Positions 26,468 through 61,002 of a stretch of DNA of 64,000 nt are shown in pieces. A program made the translations under genes and the position numbers. How positions within the stretch are numbered: the stretch's first letter is position 1; each line of letters begins with the position of its first letter. The notes below the pieces were generated by a model, which did not search any database, was not told where the DNA came from, and saw only the letters and a program-made list of their open reading frames with translations. The stretch is from Nemertoderma westbladi (lineage: Eukaryota > Animalia > Xenacoelomorpha): the NCBI GenBank assembly GCA_032718475.1, contig JAUCBJ010007794.1, forward strand, positions 1 to 64,000, given 5' to 3'.

Positions 26468-27025
26468 TGTGACGGGATCCAGGAAGGTTCCCGGTTTATC
26501 CGGTTTGTTAGTTCACGCGTGCGTTGTCCCCGCCGTGCGTGAAGGGTAAAAGAGTTTGTGTGATGTTCGTTGTATATAATGATCGGCAAATAAAATGGAT
26601 ATAGATACAGTTATAGATTGTTGTACACGGAAGGCGGGTTAATGTTGACGTACGGTAATTAAAGTCCCCGTCCTTCCCTAACTAAACTTACTAACCTAGC
26701 TAGCACCAATATGACACACTGAGATAACTAACTGATATGATTACAGGTAACTGGTTATATTGCACGGGTGGCCTTGTTGCTCTACTCAATCGGTGCCTTT
26801 CCCCCCTCTGATTGGTTGATACCCTTGTTGGCGCCTTTTGGGGTGTTCCCGTTCACCCCAGCTATTCTCTCTCTTGTCAGGGGAGTAACCCCTGACCCTC
26901 ATTGTGTGCTTCTCCTTCCCATTTTGTTGGGGAGACACGAGTTGGTAATTACCCAAACTCGTGTCCCCCAATATTGCTTATCGGCTCAACTTTATGGGGT
27001 GTTAGCGGGATTGAATAAGCTAACA
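26468..27025 (-). repeat. 3' LTR of element A (558 bp, TGTTAG...GTCACA)
   Basis: About 10 substitutions seen by eye versus 59207-59742; TG...CA ends; preceded on the minus strand by a purine tract. Confidence 0.95.
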
Positions 27026-32188: not shown

Positions 32189-33432
32189 TGTACGCGCTTT
32201 TGAAGACCTTTAGCAGTTTAACCTGCCAAAATTTATATGTCTTTTGGTTTATAACTCGACTTTAGCATATGACAAGTATTTAATACCAATAAACACAACA
32301 TTAGCCGAAGCCAGCCTAGTGCGCGTCCATTCACCCGCTGGATATACCCGGGAGACTGGATTCGGAGGGCTTAGATTTTATTGCAGTGTAGCCTACTGTA
32401 TTATTCGATTGATCGTTAATAAATAATCTCTGAAGAAATATTATTTACTTTCGGGAAATATTAACAGTTCCTTTAGGACGTGGCGCTCTATCTAGGTAAA
32501 CAGAGCTATGACTTATACTAAACACAACGGTAAGGCTTATGATTCACATATAAGGCGCATTCTTTAGGAAATGCTTAGTTATCAGCCACAATCATGCACA
32601 CTACCGGTACCGCACAATACTGCACACTAATCTGCCGACCGTCAATGAATTTGATCATACATAAAGAGAACAGCAATTGACTCATGTAGTGTCTATCAAA
32701 TAGCATTAGATTCACTACAAACCACGATAATATAAGTCGCAATTGTTATATGTAACCGGTCTCTCTAACCTGTAGTGTATCAAGAAGATTGGGAAATTTG
32801 GGTTATTTATCGATGTTCTCCAAGTAATAATATTCAACCAACTGATACAAATAATAACCACAGTAAATAGCATTAAGACGGTAGGTTAAGATATGATATG
32901 ATTGGTAGGTATTGGTATGATATGGTTAGTTGTTAAGCATGAGTTGAGTTGATAACAGTTATACTTTCTATAATCTAAGCCTACTAATGTTTCTTCTAAA
33001 GTCTGAAACAAAATGATTCCAGAGCCGGTGTTCTTGGCCTAGATAGAAACAACACAACAACTGTAAGAGTCTCTGTGATAGTGTCACACTGTTGCAGGTA
33101 TCTTTTACACAGAGAGGACAAGCTCTCATTGGCAGAACACCAGATTCCACAGGTTCCACGAATGTCTAAATGCCGAACTATCAGGATTTTTGCAGCCCTT
33201 GGCCAGCACACAAAATTAGTCACTCCGCTCGGTTGCCCTGGTTGCATACTCTGCTGCTATAGCTCTGGTTGGCCGATAGAACATAGCAAAGAGCCCCTCG
33301 TACAGCAAATCAGCCAATCAGCTGGTCGCTTGTATCATTCGAGTTAGGGAGCTTTTTAGAGTATTCCAGCGCCTTGGGGGGAACTGGATTGCAAAGCAAA
33401 AGGGCCAGTTATATCCCACAAAAGCTTTTACA
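32189..33432 (-). repeat. 3' LTR of element B
   Basis: TGTAAAAGC...GCGTACA on the minus strand; about nine differences seen versus the 5' LTR; short purine-rich GGGAGCGG precedes it. Confidence 0.96.
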
Positions 33433-35484: not shown

Positions 35485-35576
35485 TTCCCTTTCAGTGTCT
35501 ACATCGTCCGTATCATGTAAATCGATAGGATGGCAGGAAGGCAGATATAATGTTGGGGGGTGTAGCTAGCTATCCG

Positions 35577-36287
35577 TCATATCGGGTGGTCAATATAATT
35601 TGGAGATGAGACTGATTCACTTGTCGCCTCAGCATGTAGTGACTTTTGGATTGCCCCTGATGCAGGTACAATTGGCTGATCAACATATAGTCTATTTGTA
35701 GGTATGCCTAATAAATTATCTATTGGACTTGGTAATGTTGCCTCATTGTCTGGACCTTCTAAAGAATATTCTAGTGGGGTTGAAAAATTTTCAACTGGTA
35801 CTGGTCTCAAAAATGTATTACCTACATGTACACTTGATGTTTTGCCTGACTCCTCCGATGAAGGAAATGTAGGGGTAGTAGCCCTAGTAGGTACCGGTAT
35901 GTTATTAACAGTAGCCTCATGTACCTTAAGTTCATAAATTGCATTCAGTGCCTTCCACTCCTGCTCTATGGTGGTAAATTCCCTAACTTGCTCATCCCGA
36001 TAGCATCTAGCTATATTTGGGTGCAACTGTAACTGATTGACAGTATGTCTAAATGCTGTAACTGAATGGTCAATGTTGGCCATTCTACCTGCCAATGTAT
36101 CTAATGGTAATTCATCGCTGGCTAATTTGTCAGCTATGTCTGTTATTTGCTTCTTTAAATAGGACCTACTTGTTCCAATGGACCTTTTAAGTCTCGATGA
36201 AGTTCCACCTTCATCTAAGCTATTGCTACGATCTCTTGGCCTTTGCCGTAGGTTGAAACCTTTGCGATTTGGAGTAATATCCGACAT
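35577..36287 (-). CDS. Accessory ORF of element B, helical N-terminal half, unknown function
   Basis: 236-aa ATG-initiated ORF in AT-rich surroundings with an amphipathic helical segment (LKRSIGTSRSYLKKQITDIADKL...). Confidence 0.5.
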   Translation of the reverse strand: MSDITPNRKGFNLRQRPRDRSNSLDEGGTSSRLKRSIGTSRSYLKKQITDIADKLASDELPLDTLAGRMANIDHSVTAFRHTVNQLQLHPNIARCYRDEQVREFTTIEQEWKALNAIYELKVHEATVNNIPVPTRATTPTFPSSEESGKTSSVHVGNTFLRPVPVENFSTPLEYSLEGPDNEATLPSPIDNLLGIPTNRLYVDQPIVPASGAIQKSLHAEATSESVSSPNYIDHPI

Positions 36288-37443
36288 TGTATTTATAAAT
36301 GTCAGACTGTACTGTATGTATTGTAAAGTATACTATACCTTTGATTTGTTATACCTAAGCTATAATAAATATATCTATCCTGTACATAATACCAGTATAT
36401 AATATAATGTAATATTAAATATAAGTAATTATAAGTACCGGTAAATCCAATCTGCCTATAGGACCTAACAGCCTAATGTATACCAGTATGGTATAGCCTA
36501 TCTGCCTATGTCTACTATGTAGGTAGACAATAATATTGCCAATATGATATATATACTTGTATCACAATATCAGTGTAAACTGACTGATAATAATTGCCAA
36601 CTAGTACCGGTACTGGGTACTGTAAGAATAGGCCTATACCTTGTTACAAATACAAGGCTATTTATGTGCTAATGCCAATGCAAAATAATATTAGGCTAAT
36701 AATATAAATACTTTATGTCAGTAGTTGTCAACAATGCTATGTGCCAAATGCTAATGTGCTAGCTGGCTAGTGCTAACTGCTAAAATGCTATATGCTAATG
36801 CCAAAATACTATAGGCCTACAACTACTGCATATGCTAATGCTACCAAAAATTGAGAGAAGAATGTAGGCCTGTATGAATAAAATATATTTAGAAATTGCG
36901 CTGCGCTTAAAAATAAAACACTCTGAAAACTGGAAAAATTGAAAAAAGAAAAAAAATGGGTGAATGCGCCGTTCTCTGCCGTGTATTACCAATCTTGCAT
37001 GGAATCTGTATTCCTGGCCAGTAAATACAGACTCCCAAAAATAGTAACACAAAACAGAAAATAGCACACTGTCACACTACATAAGCAGGTACCGGTATTT
37101 CAGCATTTAACATTGTTCAGTTGTTTAAGCAGATTAAATGATTTTGTAAAAATCTAGTTAGGCTATGTGGCCTCTATGGTTATTCAGTATGGTACTTCAG
37201 TAGGCCTACTTACACGCAGTCAGCCTACAGCCTACGTGGTCGGGCTGACCGGTTTCAGCAGCTCGGTGAGAATTCAGGAATTAATAAGAGAGAATTTTAT
37301 AACCACCGGTACTTCTGTACTTTACCGTATGGTTTAGCGTTCAGCATTAAACGGATTCAATAGGCCTAATAGGCTACTATTCAGCTATTTGACCGTTTTT
37401 TTTTTTGAAATTTTTGAAATGAATGCCCTTTTTTTTTTTTTTT

Positions 37444-39383: not shown

Positions 39384-42300
39384 TCAGTCTCTTTCCAGTA
39401 AACATAAACGACCAACTGGGCGATTGAGTTGTTGCGTCTCAAAGATTATGCCGGGTTTCTTGAGGTTACGCCGCATGACGACGAGTTCCACCGAGCGCAC
39501 TAAACCATCATCCGAGATGTGAGTCTCGTTGATACGACCTGTCTGCCACCGTTTACGTGGAAGGTCTGAATCTACAATAAGCACCATGTCTCCGGCGCTG
39601 ACGTTTTCTTGCTGCGCAAACCACTTAGTTCGAAGTTGTAGCGTGGGCAGATAATGTTTCTCGAAATGGTCAGCGAAACGACGGGATAGCAACTGCATAA
39701 GTTGCCAGGTTTGACGGCAGTATTCGTCTCCGTCGGCAATCTCCGATCGTGGGAGCATGGCTACAGGTTTCTTCAGTAGGAAGTGTGCGGGTGTTAGCGC
39801 TTCCAGGGAATTGGGACTCGATGAGACTGGCATAAGCGGTCTCTCGTTGAGATAGGCAGCGATTTCCTCCATTGACGTCCGCAAAAGTTCGTCGGTGAGA
39901 TACGCGCGGCATGGCACTATAAAGTGAAATGCGGTCTTGACACTTCTAATTAATCTCTCCCAGCTTCCTCCCCACCAAGGGGCGTCGGCGGCGTTGAAGG
40001 TCCAGCTAGACGCTGTTATCCTTAGCTGATCGTCCACCTGTCTTTGGTTCCAGTCCTTCACGTAAGTCTGGATTTCGTTGTTGGCACCAATGAAGTTCGT
40101 TCCCTTATCCGATCTCATGGTATTACTAGTCCCGAAGCGAGCGATCTGTCGGCGTAAACTTAAGACGAAGCTGTTGGTAGATAGATCGTTCACCATATTG
40201 AGATGGATGGCTCTACAAGTCATGCATACGAAGATGACACACCATCTCTTGACTATAGTCCTAGCACGATATACTTCAATAGGGCCAAATAAATCTACAC
40301 CAGTATTAGTAAAGGGTGGTTCATAGAAGCTTACTCGTTCCCTAGGTAATTCTGCCTCTCGCTGTTTTAAAGGCCTACTGAATGCTTTCCTACAGGGTAT
40401 GCAGTTCCTAAGAACTTGGTTCAGAGCTCTACGGGGTTTATAAAAATAATAGCGAGTTCGGATTTCGCTAAGAACTCGTTCTCTACCAGCATGATAAAGT
40501 TTACTGTGAACATCTACAATCATCTTGATTTGTACTTCAAGATTTCTAATGAGTATGGGGAATTTAGTGTCAAAGGATAATGGCGCATTGGTGAGTCTTC
40601 CTCCAACACGTATTAACCCATCTATCATTGTGCTAGAGAAGCGATCCCTTAAGCGCATCTGCGGATTTCTCAACAACAGGAAATACTTATCGGAATCCTC
40701 ATAGCATTGCAGGAGTCTCAGTATCTGCTTATTGGTTTCTTCATGCTCCTGGTAACTGATTTTCTCCTTTAGAAACCGGTCGGATGTCTTATATTTGGGG
40801 AGATCTTTAATAACATGAACTTGTGCAGATGTCAATGGAGCGGTATCACTAATGGTCTTCGTCCTGGAGTAGTGATGATGAAAACATCGCCTTAAATATG
40901 TGACGGCCTTACAGAGCCGATTCCAGGAACTGTAGTGATGCATTGCTCTCTGCAGCAGGGGTGAGATTCCTTGCAAACCGTCTGGTATTCCAGATTTCCA
41001 ATCTCTATCTCTAATTTCCACAACAGACTTATTTGTGGCGAGGGATTGCGGATCCGAAGCATCGTTTCCGGAAGTATGTAATACAGATAGATCGACCGTC
41101 GGTTTAAATAACTTCGATTTACTCGCCCGGGTTTTAGGTTTGACTTTCTCCGCTCCCTTGGCTTGTCTAATCTCTGCCGTAGTAAGGTGAGGAGGCCATT
41201 CATTCTCTTCCTTGCTAAGGAAGTCGGGTCCACCCAACCAGTCCGGAGTATCTATCAGTTCCTGTGGAGTTGCTCCCCTGGAGGCGATATCGGCTGGATT
41301 AATCGTACCAGGGCAATGTCTCCATTGATCTATCTTTGTGCGACTAAGAATAATGGCTACTCTGTTAGTAACAAAAACGCTGAACTGACAGACTTCATTG
41401 GTTATATACTCCAACACGAGTAAAGCGTCGGTCCAATAAACAGTTTTCTCCAGTGGATAGTCGATTTGTTCTGTTACGTTCCGGCTGATGGCTGTAGTGT
41501 ATAAAGCCGCTTTTAACTCCGCTCGAGGAACCTTTAACTTGTTGTTAATCAATGCCTTAGAGGTAACCAAGGCGACTTTGATTCCATCCGGAGTTTCGAC
41601 TTGCAGATATGCTAGTATACCTATTCCCATGTCACTGGTGTCTCCAAACACATGGAGTTGATAGGAATACGTAGGGAGAACATGACCAAAATATGAACAG
41701 GAAATTATAAAGCTCTCGATGGCAGGTAGAGAATCTTCCCATTTCATCCACTTCTTTAACAGTTCTCCCTTAAGTGGATCGTCCCAGGAGTGGTTTTCAA
41801 GCCACATTTGTTGTACTAAACTCCGAGCAATCAATATAACTGGGCTAATAAATCCCAATGGGTCGAAATAAGTGCTCAGGATACTTAAACAAATCCGTGT
41901 GGTCCGAACTGGATTATCTCGCTGTTTTAGCTGAAAAAACAGGATATCTCTTTCTGTGTCCCACTTCAAGCCAAGCGTCTTGGTTTCTGGAAGATCGTCC
42001 TTTATTAAGTCTAGGTCTTTCGTTCCTCGATCTTCTACCGGTATCGCTTCCAGAAACTCACGGGAGTTGCTGGTGAATTTCGTCAGTCGAAATCCTCATC
42101 TTTTCAAACACTCTACCGTTCCTTTCGCGACATCAATGGCTTCTTCTACTGATTGAAGGGACTTTAAATTGTCGTCCATGTATATATCACGTTTGATGTT
42201 ATCTATCACCTCTTTTGAGAAGGCGTCCCGGTTGTCATTCGCAGTGGTCCGCACCACGGAGCAGGCGTTGTAAGGGCTTGATATGATCCCAAAAGCCTGG

Positions 42301-43721
42301 ATGGTCATCCAGTACTCTACCAGTTTCTGGTTGAGATCTCCTTCAGGCCACCACAGAAATCTTAGGCTGTCTCTATCTCTATCCAGCGCCTTGACTTGTA
42401 AGAACATTCCTTCTATATCGGAGGCGAACGCGATGGAATATTGTCTTAATCTTAAAAGTATTCCCAACAAGGATTGGAGTAAGTTGGGTCCTGGTAACAA
42501 CTCGGAATTGAGGGATTGGCCCATATATAGAGCGGAGCCATCGAATACGACTCGTACTTCATGGGGTTTACCGGGTTTGGGAACGTAATGATGTGTTAAG
42601 TAATACGTTCTCTCAGTTATTGGTGTTCCTTCCGGTACTCGCTCCGCGTATCCCTTTGTAATCAATTTCTTCAACTGAGTTTGGTACATTTCTTTAGCTG
42701 AAGCATTTGCCGTAAGGCGTCGATGTAATTGAGTGATTCTTTTCTCTGCCAAGGGTCTGTTATTTATAAATCTAGGTTCTCGTTTTCGAAATGGTAGGCC
42801 GATTTCATATCTACCTTGATTTTTTAAAAAACGTGTAGTTGTTTCCTGGATTTGCTTGGCTCTTTCTTCTTTTATCGATAGGGCCTTATCGTATGAATTG
42901 GGCTCTACCAATTCTTGAGTAAAGAATCGTACGGCGAGTTCGTCCCGAGTTCTAGCGTTGTAGCGCTCTATCTCATCATTGAGTTCGTCATTGTAATCAA
43001 TGGGTCCCGATGGGCGAATCAGTTGACATAGGTTCACCTGGTTTTTCCAAATTCTGTTTTCTGTAAGTAGGTCGATTGTGTTCTCTTCATCGAAGAGTTG
43101 GTAGATGTCGTCATTATCTGAGGAGTATGGTGTTCCCTCAGTTAGTTTGTCCACCTCACTGCTCTCCACTTCCCAATCATTTACTTGGTATATTCGTTCT
43201 TGTGGTAGTCTCTCTTCGAGAGTTCTGCGGGAAGGGCCAGTAAAGTACCAACCTACTCTAGTTCTTACCGCATAGGTTTGTAGTGGCTGCGGTTGAGCAG
43301 GCCGTTTCTCCAATGTCTCGAGCTCCTCATGCGCGTTTTGGCCGATGAGTATTTGTACTCCAGGATAATCTGTCTGGAATCGAGGTATCTTAAGCTGTTG
43401 GATGCTCTCGTCTTCGTCCCAGTCATAAGGTTCTACTTGGGTAGTAGCGAAGTTTTTTATAGCCACCATTTTTACTGACCTTATACTTTGTGCTCCTAAT
43501 TTATCCTGGGGGGTGGACAACGCACCTACATAGTAATCTGCCGTTATGGTAGATTTCCAAACCTGTATAACTCCTGACATATTTAACTTAGTTCGGAATT
43601 TGGGTTGTCCAGCAAAGATGTCTTTGGCTAGTTCTTGATCGATGAATGTTCCTGTGCTGCCGGAGTCAAGGAGGGCGTTCACTACGTAACTTTTGTTAGG
43701 ACCGTGAACTCTTACCTGCAC
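39384..43721 (-). pseudogene. Element B pol: aspartic protease, reverse transcriptase, RNase H, integrase
   Basis: LLDSGSTGTF (protease); VRVVFDGS...SLNSELLPGPNL...DIEGMFLQ...YMDD (RT); FDPLG...LHVFGD...WTDA...NPADIASRG (Pao RNase H region); H-x3-H...C-x2-C, GVDLFGP, SDKGTNF, WERLI (integrase). One nonsense codon at 42096. Confidence 0.96.
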
Positions 43722-46700
43722 TACAGGAAATTCTCTGATTTCTTACGTTGGAAGTTGGAGCTTTCCAAGATGGTTGTCTGTCAAAAGTAGTTGGGGGGAA
43801 CTCATTGTCGGTGTCCTTTTCGTAAGTAAGTGCTCGATACACTGCGGTATTTATTAGGTAACAGGATTCGTTGGCGTCGGAGAATTCGTCAGTATAGAAT
43901 CCTTCCATCTCAGATTCTTGATCGGTATCATTTACATCACTGAATTGGACATGTAGTTCGGGCTCACTTACCTGACTCGGGTTGTTTCGTTCGAATTCAC
44001 TGTGTAACAAGATGTGATGTTTTGCACCACACTTTGCACACCTTACGTCGGAGTAACAGGTTCGCCGTTGGTGTCCTTGTCTGAGGCAATTATAGCATAA
44101 CCGCTTATCCCACATGACTTCACGTCTGTCTACCAGGGATTTCTTTAGGAATTCCGCACACGCACTCAAACGGTGGGGCCCGTCGCACAGCGCACATTTT
44201 GGTTTGATGTTACTCACTTCACCTTGGGTAACGTTATGCACTCTCGTTCTTTCTTCGGGCTTTCTTCCATGCATTCTGTTAGGAGACTGAGGAGGAGTCT
44301 TAGCAACCTGTTCTCTCCTGTCATGGGTTCGAGCCTTATATTTACTTACGTCCTTTGAGGTTTTGTTAACATAGTAAGATCAGTCAGTGTCTTTCCCGCT
44401 GTCCTCTTCTTGAGAAGCTTGGCTTTCGCCGTCGTCAGTATAACACACTGGTGTTACCCTTCTCCGAGAAACGGGTTTCTCACTTACCTTATTTTCCGAT
44501 GTTTTCTCTCTGGACTGCTTTATTAGTTGTAATTTTACTTCACCATCTAAGAAGGACATGAGATCAGCCATGGTAGGGCTCCATTGTTGTTGCTCCATCA
44601 TATACAACACTTTCTTGTCCCAGCGTGTACATACTCCACCCTTTGGTAAAGTAGAGACTATGGCTCCAATAACCATGGAACTCTGATATTCATGAGACTT
44701 ACCTAACCAATCCAATTGTCTACAGATCTCCTAAATCTCATCGGAAAACTCTATAATCCCGCTACTAAGGAACTTTCGGGGGGCTACTAATTTTGCATAC
44801 AAATACTTAGCTATGTTATCCTTGTTACCATACCTGATGTTTAATGTATCCCAAACTTGTCTTAATCCATTCCTTCCAAGCACTTGATGAGGAATCTAAG
44901 TTTCTCTCCATTAGATAGTACAGAGTTCTGTATGCTATCTTTGTAATATTCATTGAAAGGTAACCATTTCATCTCATCTCCATTGAATTTGACGATTTCT
45001 CCCACTTTGACCGCTTGGCGGGCTTCTGTTCTAGCCATCTGACGCGTAAAGCTTTCTTGGGCCATCATGTTGTTTAATATCGAATTATCGGTATATAAAT
45101 TTCTCGGATTATTATCAGGTCTATAGGGAATATCATTAACAACAGGTTTATAATCACCCTTAATAGGATTTGCTATAGGAGTTTCTACTTCACTAGCAGT
45201 ATAGATGCGTGTAGGCTCCACACCTTGCGCATGTAATACTTCAGACCTAACAGGTTGACACAATGTTACAGGGGGTATTGGTATACCCTTTTGTATATTG
45301 ACTAATTTGTTGCGTTCTAGCGCGATGCTTTGCTGCACTTCTTGCAATTCTAACTTACTTTCCCTTACTGTTCCCTTGAGTTGGTGGACAGTCTCCTACA
45401 TCTGTCCAAGCAGGAGATTCATCCCCCGCCGTCCCTCCTCTACCCACTCGACCGCCGAAGCGGGAGTCGCCAACATTGTAGCGGGTAGACGCGGGACGAC
45501 GGGAGACAAACCTTTGATTTCTCTCTCGGCATCCAGGACAGGGATATTCTCATGGACTGTTCTACCGGGTACAGGCAGTGTAGTACTGTGTAAAGGGAAT
45601 TTAGAGTTAGACTCTGGAAGTACAGGGGTCTCTAGCACAGGAGTGGCTTTGGGAACGACAGGCCTAATTATTTCAGGCTTATCGACTATCGTAGGGAGTC
45701 TTTTGACCTTAATAATTTGGTCTGTGGGTTCTGTACTACCTAAGTCTGTGCTAGCTAGTTGTCTTCTAACAGCTGGGGGCAAATCAGGCAATTTGTGACG
45801 GTGAGATGTTTTTCTATGCCTGCTTAGACGAGATCTATTTCCTCCGCTTTCAGGATCGGTGGTCTCGCCTTCCTCCGATGATGTGTATCCTTGGCGTTTG
45901 GGAGTAGATCGACTCATCATCTGCATTTGACTAGCTGTTAACTGTTTATTTATGCAGTCCTGCGTCTCTTGAAGATTTTCCAACTCTAGTTGGGTGGTCT
46001 CTTCAGACGCTCTCCGTTTTGCTTCTGCCAATGCCTCCGCCGCTTTTCTTTCTGCCTCTGCCACTGCCACTGCCGCCTTTCTTTCTACTTCTGCCGCTGC
46101 CGCTGCTACTGCCTTTCGATCTTCTATTCGTTTTTTCTTTACTTGTTCTTCCTGGGCTCTAGCGATGCGGAGTTGTTCATCAAATTTAGCTTGGTTTGCA
46201 GCTAACATTTCCGCATCGATTGAGTCCAACACAAGCTTGGCTCCTTCACTATTGGGGCGAAGTCCAGCCAGTTGTCTCCTCAACTCTTCGTCACCTAAGA
46301 AACGTTGATAGTCTGACAGATAGATGTTGATGGCGTCTCTCGTTCGCAGTCTCTCTGCTGTCACTTCGCTTTCCACTTGAGAAAAGGTGGCATCGGTTGA
46401 TTCTTCATAGGTTGGTTGCTCAGCCAGCCGGGATTTCCACTGGGCTGTTTCTTGAACTTTGAGACCTACCCGTTGGAACCAAGTCTTGACAGCAACTTGC
46501 AGCGACGTGTCCTGTCTTCTTTTGGAAGTTTCCTCAAAGGCTGATAGAATTAGTCTAATGCATAGGGTTCTTTCGCGTACTTGACAAAGCAGCTCTTCCA
46601 GCTCTTGAGGTCCTTGAGGTTGTCGAAACAGTTGTTCTTCTAATCGCTCTAAGGAGCCAAAGAATCCCTGCACATATCCTGCTGCCGACCTCTTCCAAAC

Positions 46701-47238
46701 AGCTGGATCCATCGTATCTTTAGTCACTCCCATCCTGTGTATGTCTTCCCAAGTAGCTTCGGACAAATCTAACGGGAGTCCGGGTCCGGGAAAGTTCCAT
46801 TGTGACTCGACAATAGACATCAATTCTTCCCTGGCGTATCCCGCATAACTATCTTGGGTCACTCGCTTACTTCTCGCCCAATCGACTTGGTGTTCCTCCA
46901 CCGCAATCAATATCGTAGTTAGTACTGCGGCAGGAAGAGTGAGAAGGGGATCCGTATAAGCTGTATCCGCCATCTTCACTCCGCGTATTAGGATATTGAC
47001 TAGGATATTGCTGCTGTAGGACAGCTGCTTCTTGGTTCCGTTTGACCTGGGCCCGAGTGCCGATGATAGACCTACGGTGTTGGATTAGCCTAGGGTCTGA
47101 TACTACTACTGGAGGGATGACCTTTCTTTCAGTAGGAGGTGAGCTGAACCCTTTTCTTAATCGCTCCACACTCCTATCTGTGTCACAGATGGTTGTATCG
47201 ATTAGACTGTCCGACAGGTTTTGCTTTGTGTCAGACAT
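43696..47238 (-). pseudogene. Element B gag (fragmented)
   Basis: Starts MSDTKQNLSDS; coiled-coil region; KFNGDEMKWLPF...LSNGEKLRFL (DUF1759-like); triple Cys-His CALCDGPHRLSAC/CYNCLRQGHQRRTC/CAKCGAKHHILLH typical of BEL/Pao; several stops and frameshifts. Confidence 0.92.
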
Positions 47239-49186: not shown

Positions 49187-49414
49187 CAGTTGGGCCTACA
49201 GACCTACAGCAGTACCGGTTCAGGCAGTTGGGCCTACAGACCTACAGCAGTACCGGTTCAGGCAGTTGGGCCTATGGACCTACAGCAGTACCGGTTCAGG
49301 CAGTTGGGCCTACGGACCTACAGCAGTACCGGTTCAGGCAGTTGGGCCTACAGACCTACAGCAGTACCAGTTCAGGCAGTTGGGCCTACGGACCTACAGC
49401 AGTACCGGTTCAGG
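49187..49414. repeat. Six 38-bp tandem units in B's leader
   Basis: CAGTTGGGCCTACAGACCTACAGCAGTACCGGTTCAGG at 49187, 49225, 49263, 49301, 49339, 49377. Confidence 0.95.
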
Positions 49415-49465
49415 TTTACCGGTCGACCAGTACTTTCAACTTTATTGCTTACTACAATAAAGAAG

Positions 49466-49476
49466 ATAACTGTTAT
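49466..49476 (-). other. Putative self-priming PBS of element B
   Basis: ATAACAGTTAT directly follows the 5' LTR and is the exact reverse complement of LTR positions 50250-50240 (ATAACTGTTAT). Confidence 0.7.
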
Positions 49477-50720
49477 TGTACGTGCTTTTGAAGACCTTTA
49501 GCAGTTTAACCTGCCAAAATTTATATGTCTTTTGGTTTATAACTCGACTTTAGCATATGACAAGTATTTAATACCAATAAACACAACATTAGCTGAAGCC
49601 AGCCTAGTGCGCGTCCATTCACCCGCTGGATATACCCGGGAGACTGGATTCGGAGGGCTTAGATTTTATTGCAGTGTAGCCTACTGTATTATTCGATTGA
49701 TCGTTAATAAATAATCTCTGAAGAAATATTATTTACTTTCGGGAAATATTAACAGTTCCTTTAGGACGTGGCGCTCTATCTAGGTAAACAGAGCTATGAC
49801 TTATACTAAACACAACGGTAAGGCTTATGATTCATGTATAAGGCGCATTCTTTAGGAAATGCTTAGTTATCAGCCACAATCATGCACACTACCGGTACCG
49901 CACAATACTGCACACTAATCTGCCGACCGTCAATGAATTTGATCATACATAAAGAGAACAGCAATTGACTCATGTAGTGTCTATCAAATAGCATTAGATT
50001 CACTACAAACCACGATAATATAAGTCGCAATTGTTATATGTAACCGGTCTCTCTAACCTGTAGTGTATCAAGAAGATTGGGAAATTTGGGTTATTTATCG
50101 ATGTTCTCCAAGTAATAATATTCAACCAACTGATACAAATAATAACCACAGTAAATAGCATTAAGACGGTAGGTTAAGATATTATATGATTGGTAGGTAT
50201 TGGTATGATATGGTTAGTTGTTAAGCATGAGTTGAGTTGATAACAGTTATACTTTCTATAATCTAAGCCTACTAATCTTTCTTCTAAAGTCTGAAACAAA
50301 ATGATTCCAGAGCCGGTGTTCTTGGCCTAGATAGAAACAACACAACAACTGTAAGAGTCTCTGTGATAGTGTCACACTGTTGCAGGTATCTTTTACACAG
50401 AGAGGACAAGCTCTCATTGGCAGAACAACAGATTCCACAGGTTCCACGAATGTCTAAATGCCGAACTATCAGGATTTTTGCAGCCCTTGGCCAGCACACA
50501 AAATGAGTCACTCCGCTCGGTTGCCCTGGTTGCATACTCTGCTGCTATAGCTCTGGTTGGCCGATAGAACATAGCAAAGAGCCCCTCGTACAGCAAATCA
50601 GCCAATCAGCTGGTCGCTTGTATCATTCGAGTTAGGGAGCTTTTTAGAGTATTCCAGTGCCTTGGGGGGAACTGGATTGCAAAGCAAAAGGGCCAGTTAT
50701 ATCCCACAAAAGCTTTTACA
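49477..50720 (-). repeat. 5' LTR of element B
   Basis: Direct repeat of 32189-33432 at a constant offset of 17,288; flanked by TSD CTGTT. Confidence 0.96.
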
Positions 50721-52569
50721 CTGTTCTCAAGATGTCCTCCGTGACCATGTGGGTGTTCATTAACTTTGTCATGAGACGCTTCGAACTGCCCACCAGTCTC
50801 TCGACGCATCCTAGTGTATGTGGTGCATACGGCGTCCTTCTCTCCCATTTTACTTGACGTCGCCTCATGGCTGCCCTGGCTTCCTCCCCTTCCAAGATGT
50901 CCAAGGCCTCTGCCATCTCGTTCTCTGCTCCCACAAAGTTGGTTCCACTGTCGGAGTACATTACTTCGATCGTCCCACCTTTGCGGTCTCTGAACCTTTC
51001 TAGCGCATTTATAAATGCTGATGCGGATGCATCTTGGGCGAGTTCTATCCCTACCGCCCTCGTGTTGTTACATACGAAGATAATACCGTAGCGTTTCTCC
51101 GTGTGCCGCATCACCTTGATCTTTATCAGCCCGAACATGTCCACACCGCAATGCGTAAATGGTGGGTCGTGCTGTCTTACTCTACTTGCCGGTAGTGGCG
51201 CCATCTCCTGTATGGCTCACTCCTTCTTCGCTCGTCTGCAGGTCTGGCACTGCCCCACTACCGCTTTCACCATCTTCCTCAATTGTTTGACCCAGTAGGT
51301 CCTTCTTATCTCTGCGAGGGTTCGGTTGGTGCCCCCGTGCAATATCGACTTGTGGGAGTCCCAGATAATCTGGTGGACTAAAGGCGATCCTGTAGGAATG
51401 ATGATGGGTTTTGGTGGTACCACAATGCTGTTGTTGTATCCCACCCTAGAGTTCATTACTAGAATCCCATCATCGTTAAGTTGTGGCGACAGCGTGATCA
51501 GCTCGCTGTCTCGTCGAAGATGCTGTTGCTTACCGGCGCGTTCCACCTCGTCGCCATAGTTCTTCCGTTGTTCATAGCGGATGACTGCTCTAGCCGCTCC
51601 TTCCAGATCTATGGCTGTCCTGATCTTCTTACTTTTGCCAACTCCCGCGAGGAAATTCCCGAAGGCTCTCCAGTACGCAACTAATTTCTTGGTCTTGTAC
51701 CAACTAGAGCTGTAGCTGAGGAGTTTATCCGTTGGGTTATCGCACAGTTCTACTGATTTGGGTCGCACGTCCCTTATCTCCCTCACCATCTGGGAGTATA
51801 TCTCTTCTCCCTCTGAATCTCCCTCTTCTCCTTCCGATACTACTTCTCCTGGGCCCGGGTCTACCTTTCTCATCGGCGGCCAGGCCTCCTTGTCGCTCAG
51901 AAACTGTGGCCCGTGTTGCCACAATACTTCCTTCTTCAAGAAAGTGTGGCATGCCACGCCCCTCGATAACAAGTCCGCTGGGTTCTCGTCCGTAGGGCAG
52001 TAGTGCCACCTTTCTAGTTCTGTCGTCGCCCTTATTTCGTCCACTCTATTCGCGACGAATATAGGGTATCGCGTTTTCTCGTTATGTAGCCAGCCGAGCA
52101 CTACCATGGAGTCCGTCCAGTAGTGTGTCTCCACTATGTTGGGAATAGCGTCCATTATGTAGTCTGTGGCTCTAACTCCTAATCTCGCTGCTGTCAACTC
52201 TAGTTTGGGAACTGAATCCGAATCTGGTGGCGTTGACTTGGCCTTGCTGAAGGCAAGTCTGGGCTTGTGAGACCCCTCTCGTTGTACTAAGTAGAGTGCC
52301 GCTCCGTATGCCTCTAGCGACGCATCGGAGAACATGTGCAGATCCAGGTTCGTCATGTCCCCATCCGGGAAATACACTCTTGGCATGTTGTATGTTTCCA
52401 TCTGCTCTAGACCTTCTGTCCACTTGCACCACTGTTTCTTAATCTCTTCTGGCACCTCTTCGTCCCACTCATCTTTCAGCTTGTATACTCTTTTGAGTAT
52501 CTGTTTCCCCGTTACTAGTAGTTGGGATGCTAGGCCTAGGGGATTGTATATTCTTGCTATGTATGACAC
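50721..52569 (-). pseudogene. Element A RNase H and integrase core
   Basis: IYNPLG...LHMFSDAS..AYGA...PKLEL...WTDS...NPADLLSRG; H-x3-H...CQTC; GVDMFG; YSDSGTNFVGA. One nonsense codon at 51217. Confidence 0.95.
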
Positions 52570-52613
52570 ATATGGATGACATATCTTTGTGTGGATGTCT
52601 GCGTACGCGTCAC

Positions 52614-52801
52614 TGTGACGGGATCTACGGATCCCGGTTTATCCGTTTGGGTTTTCTACCTACGCGTCCCCGCCGTGTATATGAAAAGGTTCATTAAGAG
52701 TTCTGATGTTCGGTAATATGTATAAAGGTATAATATAGTTGATATATATAGTATAGTATGACACGGTTACCGGTAGATAAGTATGATGGCGGTAGCGGAC
52801 G
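52614..52801 (-). mobile_element. Terminal (R-U5-sized) LTR fragment of a family related to A
   Basis: TGTGACGGGATCTACGGATCCCGGTTTATCCG...CGCGTCCCCGCCGTG is a diverged match to the A LTR end (TGTGACGGGATCCAGGAAGG.TCCCGGTT.ATCCG). Confidence 0.75.
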
Positions 52802-53857
52802 GTGATGGACAGTGCGGCGAGAGCCTTCTGGGATATACCCGGCAAGCGGGCCTGGGTGCACGAGAAACCGGCAATGGATTTCGCGGGGGGCACCATCAGG
52901 TTGGGCGAACAACCGGGGACGGCACCACGGGTAGTATTTGGAGGGACGATGCCCGGGAGGGGCGGGGAGATAGATGTAGAAAGGGACACTAACGTCCAAA
53001 AGTTCGCCTACCAGCGACTCCATAGACTGCGGAGGTCGCTCGGGACGAAAGACGATGTGGGGCGGGAGACACTGATACTCGGTTGCGACTACTGTGGGAG
53101 ACAGACCCACCAGGAAAGGAGCTGTTTGTATCGGTTCCAGAAGGGAACCTATTGTCTATACTGCCGAGAGTCGAGCTACAGGATGGGAGCGTGTCCTTGG
53201 TTGCACAACCGATGTCCGAAGTGTAACTTTCGGGGACATTACGGATGCCAGTGCGACTGGATGGACGACGAAGAGAAGTTCAGGATCTTCGAAGAGTGGG
53301 CCGACGTCGGGGCGATGACTCGGCAACGTATGAAGGCCCAGGAGTTTAAGTGGGGTTTCTTCCTAATCAACCAGGAGGCCCACATGGAGATTATTAAACG
53401 GAGGCTTCCGTTTACTTATCAGGAAGTGGCGACGGCGGCATCATTTGCCAGGGTGATAAATACGCAGAGGTATTTAGATAGGTGGACGCCACAAAACAGA
53501 GGAGAGTTTAGGGATTTCTTGGCGGAGCATGTGCCGAGAGCCATGAAGATGATTTTATGGGACGCCACTAGGGGGAGACAAGAGGGCCATTCGGAGGGGC
53601 CACCCGCGAAGCGGTACCAGGAACTTATAACACCGGCAGCCAAGGAACTGACTACCGGGATTAGTAAGGAAGTGGCGGCGAGAGTCCGGAGACAGAAAGC
53701 AGATCCCAGGGGAGCGATAGTGACCAGGAAGCGACCCAGGGAGGAAGCCATCCCGAGAGAGACGGGGAGGTTCCCAAGGTCGGGAGGAATAGACTGAGAC
53801 TTTAGTGTGGTACGCCTGGAAGGTGCCACGCGAGACGTGCGAACTATTAAATACAAA
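52802..53857 (+). pseudogene. Inverted partial copy of A's accessory gene (zinc-knuckle half plus 3' flank)
   Basis: Near-identical reverse complement of ~27616-28672; 331-aa ORF with the intact C-terminus. Confidence 0.93.
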
Positions 53858-55906
53858 GTACCATCCCTTTATTATCGGGTAACGGTAGCTTTGGTACCTT
53901 CCATACCATCCCTATGGTGTACCGCCCCTCATCACATGTCATGGACTCCTCTACGCTCTGTTGAGCCTGCTTGTCCTCCACCGAGGTCCCTACCCCGGTC
54001 TCCTTTAATCCCTCAAAATCTTGTTTGAGCAGTCTTTTAAGCTGCTCCTCTGCTTTCTCATCACCCATTTCCTGCATAGTTCCCGCGAACATGCATCCTG
54101 ATGTCTCCGACATCCTAAATGGTATCTTGCTCTTGATTGGGCCACTCAGTGTCCACCCGAATGGTGTCAATATCGCCACTGGGTCACACTCCCTGTCTTC
54201 GCCGAAGACCGTTTGCATTCTTTCGTGGGCTGTCGGGCAGTCCATTCCTACTATGATGGATACCTGACGTCCACCTCCTGGATTGAGAAGTCAATACTGT
54301 CCAGGAATTTATATTGCTCGACCTCGATGTTGGTTGGTCGCCTGGCATTGATATTAATTGACTCTATCACTTGGATGGGGTCGATGGTTGCTCCGTAGTC
54401 ACATCCCGGTGCCACTGCTGCAATCGCGCACCGTCCAGTCCTCATCTCTAGGACTTTGTCTTTGCTCGAGATGGTTGTTACTGCCATTCTACTTGGCCTC
54501 GTCCTCAATCCTATTTCTTCGGCCACCCAATCCTCGACTAATGTGAAGGCAGCTCCGCTATCAACCAGCATCAGAGTGGTTACTGATCGATTGCCTTCCC
54601 CAATCACTCGCACCGGTACTACCCCAAGTAGCACCGTTCCTCTTTTCTTCGCCCCTACTGTGCTCGTTGCCATTGTTTGGCCTTTGTTTCGACGGAACTT
54701 AACCGGTGTCTCCTTGCATTGCCTCGCTCGATGTCCACTCATCACACATTGCGAGCAGATCTCATTTCTGTCCGCGTATTCTACCTGATCTTCCCTGGGT
54801 AATGCTTGCCAGTAGCTGCAATTCATGGTTAGATGCCTTGCATTTGTATGTAGCTGGCATTTACTCTTCGGGTCGTAGCCGTCCTTGTACAGCGCATCGC
54901 GTATCGCAACTGCATTTGTGCTAAATTCACTACTGTTTTTATAGCTTGGGTTCGGCCTACTGGATATATTGGGGTTATGTTTATTCGTGTTGTTATTTTT
55001 CCCCTGTCCGGTCTTACCCTCCGCTACTTGTGGACTCGCAGTCCCCTGCGTTGTTGCATATGGTAGTGATTGCCTGAGTTTTGGTAATGCATTCGACGTG
55101 TTGTGCTCTGGTTTCGGTCGATGGTAATCCGTCTTTGGTCCCTTTCCCAGACTATCTTCGCTATAGACTGGGTCGGTTATTAGTTCAGCTTCGTAGCTTA
55201 AGAAGCTGGACATTTCTTCTAGACCCGGTTCCACACCCTTTCTATCTCGAGTGGAGAAAGCGACTTTCCTCCACTTATTGCGCAGCCAGATCGGCAGTGC
55301 CTGCGCTATCGTGGTGATGTTGTTGGACGCGTTTAGCTCGTATGGCGCGTCCAACGTCTTCAGCACGATCAGCGCCTTTTCGACTTTGTTAGCAAACGTC
55401 TTAATGCTAACGGGATTATCCTGTAGGCCACCCGTTGTTATACCTCTCAGGGTTTGCCTGATGATCTTAGCTGGGTGCCCGTATTCCCTATCCAGCGCCC
55501 GCCATGCCGTCGTGAAGCCGCCTTCTATACCCTGGTATTGCCTCACGATGTCGTATGCTGGGCCTCCTGTGTATACTTGCAGATACTTTAGGCACTCCGC
55601 CTGCGTCAAGTTCTTCGTTAGTATTTCGTTACTATACATGCGCCGAAACTGTAGATATTCTTCCAGCCTACTCCCATCGAATTTGAATGGTCCCACCGGT
55701 GGTAACTCGATCCTGGTTTTTATCGCATCGATTAACGTGGCCATCCCCACCGCCTGCGCCTCTAATGGGTTCGATGGATGTTGCATAGTTTCCCTTGTTT
55801 GGTGCGGTCCATCCGTTCTATTCCCTGTCTTTCTCTGGCTTGGGTATATCATTGGGGGTAGCGGCCCCCTCCATATTTCAGTGGCGCATGACTTATTTTC
55901 ATCCAA
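53858..55906 (-). pseudogene. Element A gag core and protease, truncated before RT
   Basis: FKFDGSRLEEY...LKYLQVYTGG (DUF1759-like); CQLHTNARHLTMNC and CSQCVMSGHRARQC; LVDSGAAFTLV protease; TPFGWTLSGP; ends at GRYTIGMVWK...LPDNKGMVL. Confidence 0.92.
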
Positions 55907-55964
55907 GGGGTTCGTTGTTCTCGCTCCTATTGGGGTATATTGTTGATATTGCGATGGGGGAATG

Positions 55965-58900
55965 TCACCCTGTCCCCCCCCCCCCCCCCCCCACCGGTAT
56001 GTATGGTACTGGGGTTGATGTTAATATATTGGGGCCCATGCATCTATCCGCAATAATTCCCCCCTCCCCTGGGTATATGTTATATCCTTTGGTGCTGTAG
56101 TCATACTGCTGCACTGGTACCGGTATAGGCCTATCCGCTTCTGGCCTACCTACCGGAATGTATTCCGCGACTTCCGGGTTTAATCCCGTCGTCCGCGCTA
56201 TCCTATCGCCTATATTGCCTCTGTCAGCATGGCCTATGGTATGTGCAGTAAGGCCTGCAGTATGTCCTACAGTCTGTATGTGTTGCTCGGGATCGAAGTT
56301 TATTCTTCTCGAATAATCCTGCCCGCGGCTACCGTATTCTCGATCGGCAGGTATATCCCGTCGGAAAGTTTCCCTTCGACCCCCTCTACTGCTCTCATCT
56401 TCGTGCCGGTACATCATGTACCCCTCTCTCGACGCGTAGTGCGCCTCGTCGGGTCGCGTCTCTCCGGGGCGACGGCAATCTCCCGTAGTTCGACCCCACT
56501 GACTCTCTCCTTCCAACTCAACTACCGACGGCTCACTATCCGTCCTCGCTCTTCTATCGTTTGCGGCGATACTTCTCCTACCGTCTTCTCTTCTTCTTCT
56601 TCCAGTGCAGTATTCCCGCTCGTGAGATCTCTCGTCGACCTCCCGGTTAAACTCCACTGTTCTTCTTCCCTCTTCTGATTGGGCTCGACGCTCCGTCCGC
56701 CCTCTCGCGACGTCAACCTGCCTCTCTCTGCTCGATCGCACGCCGCTGGGGATACTCGCGATCCCCCTATTACTCTCCGTCGCCGGGTGTTGCGGTTTAC
56801 CTACTTCGGCCCTCGCATTATCCGCCAACGCCTGTGGGACATTCTCTGCCCCCCCTCTCTCGTCACTAACTTCTCGTGGTGGGGTGCTCGTAGCCCCCCC
56901 CCCCCCCCCCTCCCCACCCGCCACTTCTAACTTCACTACCTCTTACTACACTTCTATACCCCTCTTGTGGGGCATTATCTGCCCCCCCTCTCTCGCCGCT
57001 AATCTTACGTGGTGGGGCACCCGTAGCCCCCCCCCCCCACTCGCCACATCTAACTTCACTATCTCTTATTCCACTTCTACACCCTTCTCCCGTCGACACA
57101 ATGTTTGTATTGCGGCTGGGTCCACTTACCCCTGCCTCTCTCTCTACTACTACTTGGCCTACCAGGCCTACTTCGGGCTGGCTCAACCCCGCCGCTTCCG
57201 GCCTACTGTCTACGAGGCCTACCAGGCCTACCTCTTGTTGGCTCAACCCCGCCACCTCCGGCCTACCGACTACGTGGCCTACCAGGCCCTCACCCGCCGG
57301 GCCATGTACGTCGGACGCGTTTACATTAATAACACCACTGTGAGTATCCTCTAGTTCACCCAAATTATCCTGTGCACCAAAGTTAGAAACATTATTTTGC
57401 GTTATAACATTATTTGGATTATTTTGTAAATTCGAATTCGGATTATTATTTGCATTATTTGGATTACTTTGTATATTCGAATTCGGATTATTATTTGCAT
57501 TATTTGGATTACTTTGTATAACTACATTATTAGAATTATTTTGCACGTTAATATTAGAATCGTTCTGATTTAAAATAAAATTATTACTATTAGGTAAAGT
57601 ATTTCCTGCAATGAAAATTTGGTTAGAGTCGTTCAATACAGTATTCGGGTCTGCCGTGCGGTCCCTGTAAGTGGGGCATTAATAAATACATCCACGGCCT
57701 CTTGCTCCTCGAAAATACTCGTGCCCGTCCCGCTCTCAGACACCCCTGCCCGCACCAGTCTTAGTTCGCGCGTCTGTCTTGCTTTGTACTCTACAAACTC
57801 TCCTTGGCGTTTTTTCAATTCTTCTCTCTCGCCATTTTATCCATAGCCTCCCGTTCGCTCTGCTCGGCCAATTCCATCTCTCTCCTAATCCCCTCCCTTC
57901 GCCTCGCCTCACGCTCTCTGCGTTCACTTTCCTCCCTCGCCTCACGTTTCTCGCGTTCCGCCTCACGTTCCTTTCGTTCACTTTTCTCTCTCGCCACACG
58001 CTCCTCTTGTTCCTTCAACTCTATTTCATCATACTCCCTAAGGCTTCTCGCGGCCCTCTCGGCCCTCTCTCTGGTTTCTCTGATCCATACCGCTTCCCTT
58101 TCTAGTAGCACCTTCCCTTCCTCTAACCGTTTACTTATTTCTTCCTGACCTTGCGTTATCAGGTCGATACGATACGTGGCATTTATCGCTCTCACCCGTC
58201 TTTCTTTTACGGAGGATGTAGCAGACTTATCGGTTCTGACGGATTCCTTCCGCCTTCCCGATCTACTAACTTTCCCCCTCCTCCCGGAACTCCCTCCGAC
58301 CGACGAGACCGAATCCGCGGGGTCAACCTCGGATTTGCCCTCCTCAGGTCTGTTCCAACCCACTAATTTTATACCCCGGGCATCGATTAAGTATGGCCCT
58401 ATGTACACTACACTAGGTTGTATACCCCCGTGCCGCCATGAGTCATACAGTTCCTCGGCAACCCTTGTTGCTCTCTCCTCGGCCAATTCTCTCTGCCCGA
58501 AGCGCATTAGATAATATAAATGTCTGTCCGACTTACCTAGTCCTGACTTTAGTTTTACCTCATCTATCGTTTTCCCATTTCTGGCCTCCTCTAGTAGTCT
58601 CCGGGTCGCGTTGTAGGCCCGTTGAAGTCGATCGGAGACCCCAACGTCCTCGTCGCCGACCTCTCCTCCGTCTCTCCGGGTTCGACGTCGTACCGGCGGC
58701 CCCACCGTCGCCGTTCCGGTGGGCCGTCCGTCGCCCTCGGCCTGTGCCTGGCCGGCGACATCGGTACTGACATCTCCGTCGTCTCTCCGGGTCCGGCGTC
58801 GTACCGTCGGCCCCACCGTCGCCGTCTCGGTGGGCCGTTCGTCGCTCTCGGCCTGTGGCTGGCCCGCGACATCGGCACGTCGACCCTCGTTCCGTGTCGA

Positions 58901-59125
58901 CTCGTCTCTTTCTCCCTCGAGCTCGTTCTCTCTATCCTCCGACTCGACTCCCCCTCCTCTCGACTCGGCATCTGACTCCAGACGGTCCCCCTCATCTTGA
59001 ACTTCCGGATCGCCTGATATCGATGGCTCCGGCGTCGTGGGCCTGTACCGTCTGGTTGCGGCCTCGCGGATCGTTTGTTCTCCGTCCGGGGTCCGCGGCG
59101 GTGTCGTTTCTCCTGACCGACTCAT
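55965..59125 (-). pseudogene. Element A long low-complexity gag N-terminal extension (frameshifted)
   Basis: Overlapping ORFs from the ATG at 59125 lead into the gag core; shifts at G-runs and GA runs; R/E coiled coil, Asn-rich block and internal peptide repeats. Confidence 0.75.
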
Positions 59126-59195
59126 TTCCTTTGACTTTAGATTGGTGGCTGGTAGTCACTGGTAGTTAACTGAGTTTAGCTAGGGCGGCAGCTCT

Positions 59196-59206
59196 GATTT
59201 AATTAC
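59196..59206 (-). other. Putative self-priming PBS of element A
   Basis: GTAATTAAATC follows the LTR and pairs with LTR GA(C)TTTAATTAC at 59405-59394 (9 perfect pairs, 11 with one bulge). Confidence 0.6.
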
Positions 59207-59742
59207 TGTGACGGGATCCAGGAAGGATCCCGGTTAATCCGGTTTGTTAGTTCACGCGTGCGTCGTCCCCGCCGTGCGTGAAGGGTAAAAGAGTTTGTGT
59301 GATGTTCGTCGTATATAATGATCGGCATATAAAATGGATATAGATACAGTTATAGATTGTTGTACACGGAAAGCGGGTTAATGTTGACGTACGGTAATTA
59401 AAGTCCCGGTCCTTCCCTAACTAAACTTACTAACCTAGCTAGCACCAATATGACACACTGAGATAACTAACTGATATGATTACAGGTAACTGGTTATATT
59501 GCACGGGTGGCCTTGTTGCTCTACTCAATCGGTGCCTTTCCCCCCTCTGATTGGTTGATACACTTGTTGGCGCCTTTTGGGGTGTTCCCGTTCACCCCAG
59601 CTATTCTCTCTCTTGTCAGGGGATTAACCCCTGACCCTCATTGTGTGCTTCTCCTTCCCATTTTGTTGGGGAGACACGAGTTGGTAATTACCCAATCTCG
59701 TGTCCCCCAATATTGCTTATCGGCTCAACTTTATGGGGTGTT
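59207..59742 (-). repeat. 5' LTR of element A, cut ~23 bp from its end by element C
   Basis: Matches 26468-~27003, then switches abruptly to TGTAAAAGC. Confidence 0.94.
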
Positions 59743-60991
59743 TGTAAAAGCCTTTGCTGAATTGCCCCGTTATTTTTATTATCTTTTACATTAAAATACT
59801 CTGTAGTTGATTTAATAAGTGTAAGAGACCGTATTATTGCTGTATCGGTGTTTTTAGAGGATCTAAGACCTATTTCCTCCGTATGTGTACTGTGAAAGGC
59901 ATATTTTATGATTCTATGGCAATTCGTGACGCAAAGGGGTGATAGCTACTCTTGAACAGTAGTTACTATGACTACGGTTAACAGCTGACATTCATACGTG
60001 TTGATTTCCTTTGTTCTACGGCGTCTCTCAGTTCAGTCAGCCAATTAGAGCGTTTTTGTGGCTCCTTGTACAGAAAATTTCCGAGAAATGACGCAATGCC
60101 TATGTGCAGTGTTTACATTCAGTCCTGAGCCAAAGAAAGAACGGCTTGGAAGTATTTTGTGCTTTACTGTTTTTAGTCTTACACTAGTAGGTTTAATTAC
60201 AAGGACATATATCCTTTAACTACCTGACTCATGGAATCACTGATCTGGGAATACACTGACTGCTGACACACGGCTTTTAATAACTGCTGAAACTGCTAAA
60301 ATTACCTGCTCAATCGATACTGTATACTGCTATTTGTTGTCGGTTATTCATTATATTGGTTGATGAATTATTTTATTGGAATAACGAGAAATAACCCCGA
60401 AAACCCAATATTCTTGATATACCGAAGGTAAGAGAGAAAGGTTACCAATAAAGATTGTGACTTATGTTAAAGTGGTTTGAAGTGAATCTAATGTTATTTG
60501 ATAGACCCTACATGAGTCAGTCTGTGTTCCTTTTATATGTGACTAAAATCAGTGAAGATTGGAAGATTAGTGTGCAGTATTGTGCAGCATTGTGTATGAG
60601 TGAGTCTGTTAAAGAAGCAATTCCTAAAGAATGCGCCATATATGTGAATTATAATTAAGCCATATCGTTGTGAGTAGTTTAAGTCATAACTCTGTTTATA
60701 TAGATAAAGCGCCACGTCCTAAAGGAACTGTTAATATTCCCCGAAGGTGAATAATATTGTCAGAGATTATATAATACTGTCAGTCGAATAATACATTAGG
60801 CTTACATAGCAATAAAATTAAACCGTCGAACCCAATCTCCCGGGAATATCCAGCGGGTGAATGATCGCGCACAGATTGGTTTCGACTAGTGTAGTGAATT
60901 AAATACTTGTCATAGACTAAAAACCGATTTAATATCTAGAAGACATCTTAATTTGGTGGGTTAAACTGCCAAAGGTCTGAAAGCGCGAACA
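59743..60991 (+). repeat. 5' LTR of element C (~1,249 bp)
   Basis: TGTAAAAGC...AAAGCGCGAACA; boundaries inferred from homology to B's LTR ends. Confidence 0.8.
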
Positions 60992-61002
60992 TTAAAGGAT
61001 AT
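60992..61002 (+). other. Putative self-priming PBS of element C
   Basis: TTAAAGGATAT follows the LTR and is the exact reverse complement of LTR 60209-60219 (ATATCCTTTAA). Confidence 0.72.

Follow-up and report, generated by a model that had tools for sequence, protein, structure and literature searches.

Retrotransposons of the window

The window analysed here is a stretch of 64,000 nt of Nemertoderma westbladi (Xenacoelomorpha), covering positions 1 to 64,000 (forward strand) of contig JAUCBJ010007794.1 in assembly GCA_032718475.1. Its first part is an array of about 19 kb of 67-bp repeats, followed by three nested long terminal repeat (LTR) retrotransposons, here called A, B and C. The present report concerns the primer-binding site (PBS) of these elements, which in each of them is complementary to a site inside the element's own LTR. 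Element B was complete (50720-32189 on the minus strand, 18.5 kb), lay within the integrase region of A and was flanked by a 5-bp target duplication, AACAG. Element C was inserted about 22 nt within the A 5' LTR and extended past the end of the window. The two LTRs of A, the 5' copy interrupted by C, were 97.8% identical, and A measured about 14.7 kb when B was subtracted. Extra open reading frames (ORFs) were found in the 3' parts of A and B.

The preliminary description had taken the elements to be of the BEL/Pao type, and their proteins bore this out. Peptidase_A17, the integrase zinc finger, DUF5641 and the protease were identified with Pfam in both A and B, and DUF1759 in A; the domains of both followed the Pao-type order protease, reverse transcriptase (RT), RNase H, integrase. 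For the B RT 152 matches were obtained, of which the 120 listed were BEL/Pao-type polyproteins, 38-48% identical and with Pao-type or RT domains. As the RT of A was mostly displaced, its assignment was based on RNase H and integrase. Element C, whose pol lies beyond the window, was placed by 73-83% DNA identity to the LTR, leader and gag start of B and is a sister family of B. LTRs of the form TG..CA, a purine tract and a target duplication (the last seen in B only) agreed with this assignment. The elements thus resemble Belpaoviridae in domain set and order, LTR ends, purine tract and 5-bp target duplication (PMC8742986). They differ in their size, in the extra 3' ORFs and in the PBS, since the International Committee on Taxonomy of Viruses (ICTV) describes this family with genomes of 4-10 kb and an 18-nt PBS for host tRNA-Arg or tRNA-Gly (PMC8742986). 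The window elements depart from that PBS trait, and their placement rests on the proteins.

Identity between A and B was as low as 30-33% in RNase H and integrase, indicating deep, separate lineages, so that the earlier wording of a single self-priming BEL/Pao lineage was too narrow. The RT phylogeny proposed at that stage as a check agreed in so far as the B RT matched BEL/Pao-type proteins, whereas the placement of A and B was weak: in a midpoint-rooted tree of RT, RNase H and integrase without outgroup (42 rows, 693 columns; P0001 left out) both formed long branches with weak support (56 and 69). With regard to the named subclades (Sinbad, Suzu, Dan, Pao, BEL, Tas and Flow), the tree held one reference-like protein, the Antheraea polyprotein P0075.

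Complementarity between the PBS and the LTR

No TGG, the usual start of a tRNA-type PBS, was present within 40 nt after any of the three 5' LTRs, and no tRNA genes were found within the window. Instead, the bases abutting each 5' LTR were the exact reverse complement of a site inside the same LTR over 11 nt in B, 11 nt in C and 9 nt in A (Table 1). The six sequences listed in the preliminary description were all recovered at the positions given there, and the B and C sites indeed lay at the same place, 470 and 466 nt into the respective LTRs, with the same sequence context on either side. The B 11-mer is a near-palindrome, and the A PBS also matched 9 nt of the C LTR by chance, which are caveats on these matches.

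The match was measured as the longest reverse complement anchored at the first base after the LTR. Among 20,000 dinucleotide-shuffled LTRs the observed length was reached in 33 (B), 20 (C) and 116 (A), corresponding to p values of 0.0017, 0.001 and 0.006, respectively. At other offsets in the next 2 kb it was reached at 3 (B), 2 (C) and 3 (A) of 1,988 positions, and the host flanks behind the 3' LTRs gave an anchored match of only 5 nt. The B PBS matched the C LTR over just 6 nt and the C PBS matched the B LTR over 4 nt, indicating that the complementarity is element-specific.

Four of the 11 letters are not the same in the B and C sites, and each of these differences is mirrored in the PBS, for which a rough estimate under independent drift was 4e-6. 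The covariation described earlier was thus confirmed as an observation, but its interpretation as compensatory was not. In retroviruses the new PBS is a copy of the primer, made during plus-strand synthesis, so mirrored changes would arise without four selection events, provided that the site is the primer. The changes were therefore probably made by copying the primer into the PBS and not by four separate selected compensations.

Variation in sequencing runs of the host species was also inspected. At position 5 of the A PBS (59202), contigs of runs X2, X3 and X5 carried G instead of A at most of the depth, and at 59200 C was present at a minority of the depth, which would give a G-U pair. The letter mirroring the 59202 change was seen at 59398 in one loose-end cell (2 contigs of run X3, unphased). 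This variation, thin and unphased, leans towards covariation in A. None of the 40 differences covered in the B region, out of 271, fell inside the B PBS or its site, and with only this part covered the result is uninformative on covariation. The B/C family itself (window 49250-50760) was very abundant and diverse, occurring in thousands of contigs of these runs.

Despite the divergence of the elements, a word TAGTA(A/G)G was common to B, C and A at about 50272, 60187 and 59430, ahead of the respective sites by 22, 22 and 28 nt. Either a promoter element or the remnant of a splice donor could account for it.

Table 1. Positions of the LTRs, primer-binding positions, complementary sites and coding regions of elements A, B and C in the window
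Feature	Position	Strand	Remarks
B 5' LTR	49477..50720	-	1244 bp, TG...CA; ~99% identical to 3' LTR
B primer-binding position	49466..49476	-	11 nt, spacer 0, no TGG
B LTR site complementary to PBS (candidate self-primer)	50240..50250	-	duplicate in 3' LTR, 32952-32962
B LTR intron-like GT..AG segment (predicted)	49718..50057	-	340 nt; 3' of primer site, 47 nt 5' of AATAAA
Hairpin directly 3' of B PBS (predicted fold)	49440..49462	-	kept in C
B 3' LTR	32189..33432	-	purine tract 5' of LTR, target duplication AACAG 3' of LTR
B gag-pol (protease, RT, Pao RNase H, integrase, DUF5641)	39384..47084	-	stops and frame changes
C 5' LTR	59743..60991	+	3' part ~78% identical to B; inserted in A 5' LTR
C primer-binding position	60992..61002	+	11 nt, no TGG
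C LTR site complementary to PBS	60209..60219	+	4/11 positions unlike B site, 4/4 mirrored
C LTR intron-like GT..AG segment (predicted)	60428..60763	+	336 nt; homologous to B segment
A 5' LTR	59207..59742	-	C removed first ~22 nt
A primer-binding position	59198..59206	-	9 nt perfect; 2 further nt possible across bulge
A LTR site complementary to PBS	59394..59402	-	duplicate at 26655-26663
A 3' LTR	26468..27025	-	558 bp; purine tract precedes
A gag-pol, broken	50716..59155	-	integrase split by B, resumes at 31708-32217

Self-complementary PBS in related elements

Relatives were taken from an RT alignment (the best 80 of 402 confirmed metagenome loci and 8 loci from genome bins), and in 18 of them the LTR end could be set from the point of divergence of the two LTR copies; in L060 the 3' LTR ends at the contig end. 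A TGG was absent from 17 of these 18, L074 being the only one with a tRNA-type site. In 16 of the 18 a self-complement of 10-15 nt (9 nt in L045) started 0-4 nt after the LTR. It was contiguous over 10-12 nt in four relatives (L045, L054, L063 and L085). The other twelve (L003, L007, L013, L020, L032, L034, L037, L059, L060, L069, L084 and L086) showed only 6-9 contiguous nt, which became 10-15 nt after removal of an intron-like GT..AG segment of 71-451 nt. These segments start with GT(A/G)(A/C)G and end with a pyrimidine tract and AG, and the complement takes 3-9 nt from the upstream and 5-8 nt from the downstream side of the junction. Controls with the same freedom gave matches of at least the observed length in only 0-2 of 66 windows taken further downstream and 0-2 of 300 shuffles.

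The PBS letters vary by family, and among the 16 relatives a foreign PBS matched, with one exception, only inside a family. Mirrored changes recurred in L084/L086 and in L045/L054. As to kinship, L059 and L060 belong to one family, L084 and L086 are close, and many of the contigs may stem from one campaign. In a looser scan covering 12 further loci, for which the LTR start alone was defined, junction matches of 10-11 nt appeared in nine, repeat-driven matches in one and none in two; this result is weak, as the null of the scan reaches 10-13 nt. Viral contigs gave 56 pattern matches, with no relative among them.

In the tree the contiguous forms stood among junction forms, L063 beside L066 (100) and L085 beside L084/L086 (97), for which repeated intron loss is the simplest reading, the tree being unpolarised. 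The tRNA-type L074 grouped with moth Pao-like proteins (73). When A, B and C were examined in the same way, no splice-junction complement was found in their LTRs, and no splice acceptor was seen by eye directly 5' of their sites. As in most relatives, the B and C sites are followed by an A(A/T)TAAA, a word that the A LTR lacks. Contiguous forms, these three included, may be intron-loss derivatives.

Chance matches in AT-rich sequence, or functionless inverted copies produced by template switching of RT, now appear very improbable and are largely refuted. The AT-rich sites, the near-palindrome of B and the 9 nt of A at p 0.006 would fit chance, but the signature occupies the same position in all three window elements and in 16 of the 18 relatives, and switching at the DNA level would not place matches exactly on GT..AG junctions in 12 loci. 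It is also unlikely, although less so, that the pairing has a structural or regulatory role in the RNA (in packaging, splicing control or a translation switch) while a tRNA fragment or another small host RNA serves as primer. In favour of this reading, the evidence is one of complementarity, a PBS that pairs with the ends of both exons could direct splicing and take no part in priming, and half-tRNA primers exist in copia lineages (PMC6317226). Against it, the position of the complement is fixed by the LTR edge, the point from which minus-strand synthesis has to proceed if the observed LTR end is to result, and no alternative PBS candidate was present within 40 nt. Moreover, the PBS letters differ between close families (B/C and L084/L086), which a fixed host RNA cannot follow.

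Two other observations were made on these loci. In L027/L028, complete and identical BEL/Pao elements follow one another head to tail with a period of 6,138 bp, which may reflect tandem insertion, a circular form or an error of assembly. The BEL/Pao elements L081-L088 lie within contigs of bacterial genome bins and are probably animal host DNA contaminating the bins.

Position of the site in the transcript and RNA folding

According to the preliminary description the LTR sites mark transcript 5' ends, so that, as in Tf1 of fission yeast, the first 9-11 nt of the RNA of A, B and C would be the primer. We regard this strict form as possible but somewhat doubtful. In its favour, identity between the B and C LTRs upstream of the site was at background (0.46-0.55, with 0.49 for shuffled sequence) and, starting some 130 nt past the site on its downstream side, rose to 0.68-0.85, as expected for U3 and R-U5, respectively. 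The site lies about 200 nt upstream of the conserved intron-like segment. It also lies upstream of AATAAA. A length of 11 nt without spacer resembles Tf1. Predicted pairing was 0.86-0.94 when the B or C RNA began at most 15 nt from the site.

Other results argue against the site being the transcript start. No TATA box was present at the expected distance upstream of any of the three sites, and A has TATA-like and initiator-like words, judged by consensus sequences, 96 and 72 nt upstream. The homologous site in the relatives is a predicted exon junction, and a TATA-like box preceded the donor by 119-169 nt in five of 11 junction forms scored (by 36 nt in L032). Extra pairing 5' of the core was mildly enriched (Fisher p 0.017, one element per family, n=14), although individually it was below 0.05 in only 2 of 18, with values of 0.63, 0.32 and 0.09 for the window elements. 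Several relatives point to a primer well inside the RNA. Self-priming as such does not require that the site be the transcript 5' end.

Minimum-energy folds contained the central duplex in B and C, followed by the local hairpin and without flanking long-range duplexes; folds of 800 nt are unreliable. In a control, arbitrary complements placed at a free 5' end paired above 0.6 in 26 of 40 cases. As random complements pair as well, folding was rejected as evidence for a 5'-terminal primer.

Proposed model of self-priming

Taken together, the sequence comparisons show the signature of the window elements to be real and non-random and make it likely that it reflects self-priming. With similar confidence, we propose that Tf1-like self-priming is widespread in BEL/Pao lineages of aquatic animals and is often built at a splice junction. 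The tRNA-independent priming put forward earlier is in this respect strongly supported at the sequence level and extends well beyond the three elements.

In this model, the transcript would fold so that the LTR site, located in its 5' part, pairs with the PBS. RNase H of the element would then, by analogy with Tf1, cut at the 3' edge of the duplex, and RT would synthesise DNA from the cut end into U5 and R. The primer would be copied back into the PBS during plus-strand synthesis, so that site and PBS would stay mirrored as families diverge. The sole hint of such cleavage is a common predicted primer end of A-pyrimidine followed by C: the last two bases were AC in 11, AT in 3, CT in 3 and AA in 1 of 18, and the next base was C in 14 of 18, all three window elements included. 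In the junction forms the primer would be made by splicing of the 5' LTR copy, and the unspliced 3' copy would pass the intron to the new LTRs. In a cis route the spliced 5' copy would be cut a few bases into exon 2; strong-stop DNA would move to the 3' R via exon 2, and the intron would be copied from the unspliced 3' copy. Alternatively, a spliced partner RNA may act in trans. We lean, with less assurance, towards the fuller view that a large share of aquatic-animal BEL/Pao elements has dropped tRNA priming and that many assemble the primer by splicing across an exon junction of the 5' LTR, the 3' copy preserving the intron, with A, B and C contiguous and possibly derived by intron loss.

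Several points weigh against self-priming as proposed here. The perfect match of A, at 9 nt, is under the 10-nt criterion of PMC6317226. The three-duplex 'pretzel' of Tf1 was not predicted, the PBS of B and C being followed by the local hairpin. With 60 nt after the LTR included, the A duplex no longer appeared in the minimum-energy fold, and extension by 75-150 nt of upstream LTR removed the duplex from predicted folds. The mirrored A variant in the host runs was unphased, came from 2 contigs and was absent from the difference table, in which letters near contig ends are omitted. Among the relatives, 58 of the 88 loci had no usable LTR edges, the LTR ends of L037 and L045 were manually shifted 7-8 nt onto the closest CA/TA-like end, L088 showed no clear self-match, and two of the 12 loci in the looser scan (L019 and L049) gave no match. 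Finally, the coding regions seen in A, B and C are all broken.

Self-priming itself is a known mechanism. It has been shown for Tf1 (PMC4600332) and extended to the Tf1/sushi/Tcn1 group (PMC4600332; bioRxiv 10.1101/2022.12.06.519325). These Ty3/gypsy chromoviruses, among them Tf1 and Tf2 of Schizosaccharomyces pombe, Tj1 and Tosmo1-3, likewise lack a tRNA PBS and have a PBS complementary to an LTR-internal site. The window elements share both features but have BEL/Pao and not Ty3/gypsy chromovirus proteins, so they would work like Tf1 without being members of that group. They also differ from Tf1 in that the pretzel is not predicted and a 5'-terminal primer is only putative, and the BEL/Pao relatives differ in a primer that spans a predicted splice junction, for which no description was found for Tf1/sushi. 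In the plant copia TAR lineage (Houba, Osr-1) self-priming has been predicted from complementarity of at least 10 nt located 0-5 nt after the 5' LTR (PMC6317226); B and C reach this length and A falls just short of it.

The literature search, with subscription papers, GyDB and Repbase Reports outside its scope, found neither BEL/Pao self-priming nor a splice-made primer. The terms 'PBS' and 'tRNA' were not found in the accessible parts of the Sinbad paper (PMC554778) and of a BEL/Pao survey (PMC3118150), and those of PMC3286476, PMC5408687, PMC5443660 and PMC3601003 held nothing further on BEL priming. This is in line with the preliminary description, whose author was not aware of such a case. 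What appears new is therefore the setting in the BEL/Pao superfamily. If true, self-priming would be placed in the third LTR superfamily, one that ICTV describes as tRNA-primed, and this is relevant to the order in which self-priming and tRNA priming arose. A splice-built primer, if true, would tie retrotransposon replication to the host spliceosome and offer a control point other than the supply of tRNA or tRNA fragments. Such elements would be under-called by annotation programs built on the presence of a tRNA PBS. The predictions give single-base positions and can be tested by sequencing of 5' ends and junctions.

Other features of the window

Between pol and the 3' LTR, A carries an accessory ORF of 788 aa (27851-30217, minus strand) with zinc-knuckle-like Cys/His clusters. 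Neither a Pfam match nor a PDB match below E 0.4 was obtained for it; by eye we take its N-terminal part to resemble a DEDD 3'-5' exonuclease, presumably, for which Pfam and PDB gave no support. ORF pieces were also present 3' of the B pol (33511-36332, minus strand), one of them with a zinc-knuckle-like motif and no Pfam match. The 67-bp tandem units occupy 1-18971 of the window; the copies are about 95% alike and the array is at least 19 kb long. In place of most of the A RT region (52801-53857) stands a 1,057-bp inverted copy, 97% identical, of part of the 3' accessory ORF of A (27617-28673), though the A LTRs are 97.8% identical.

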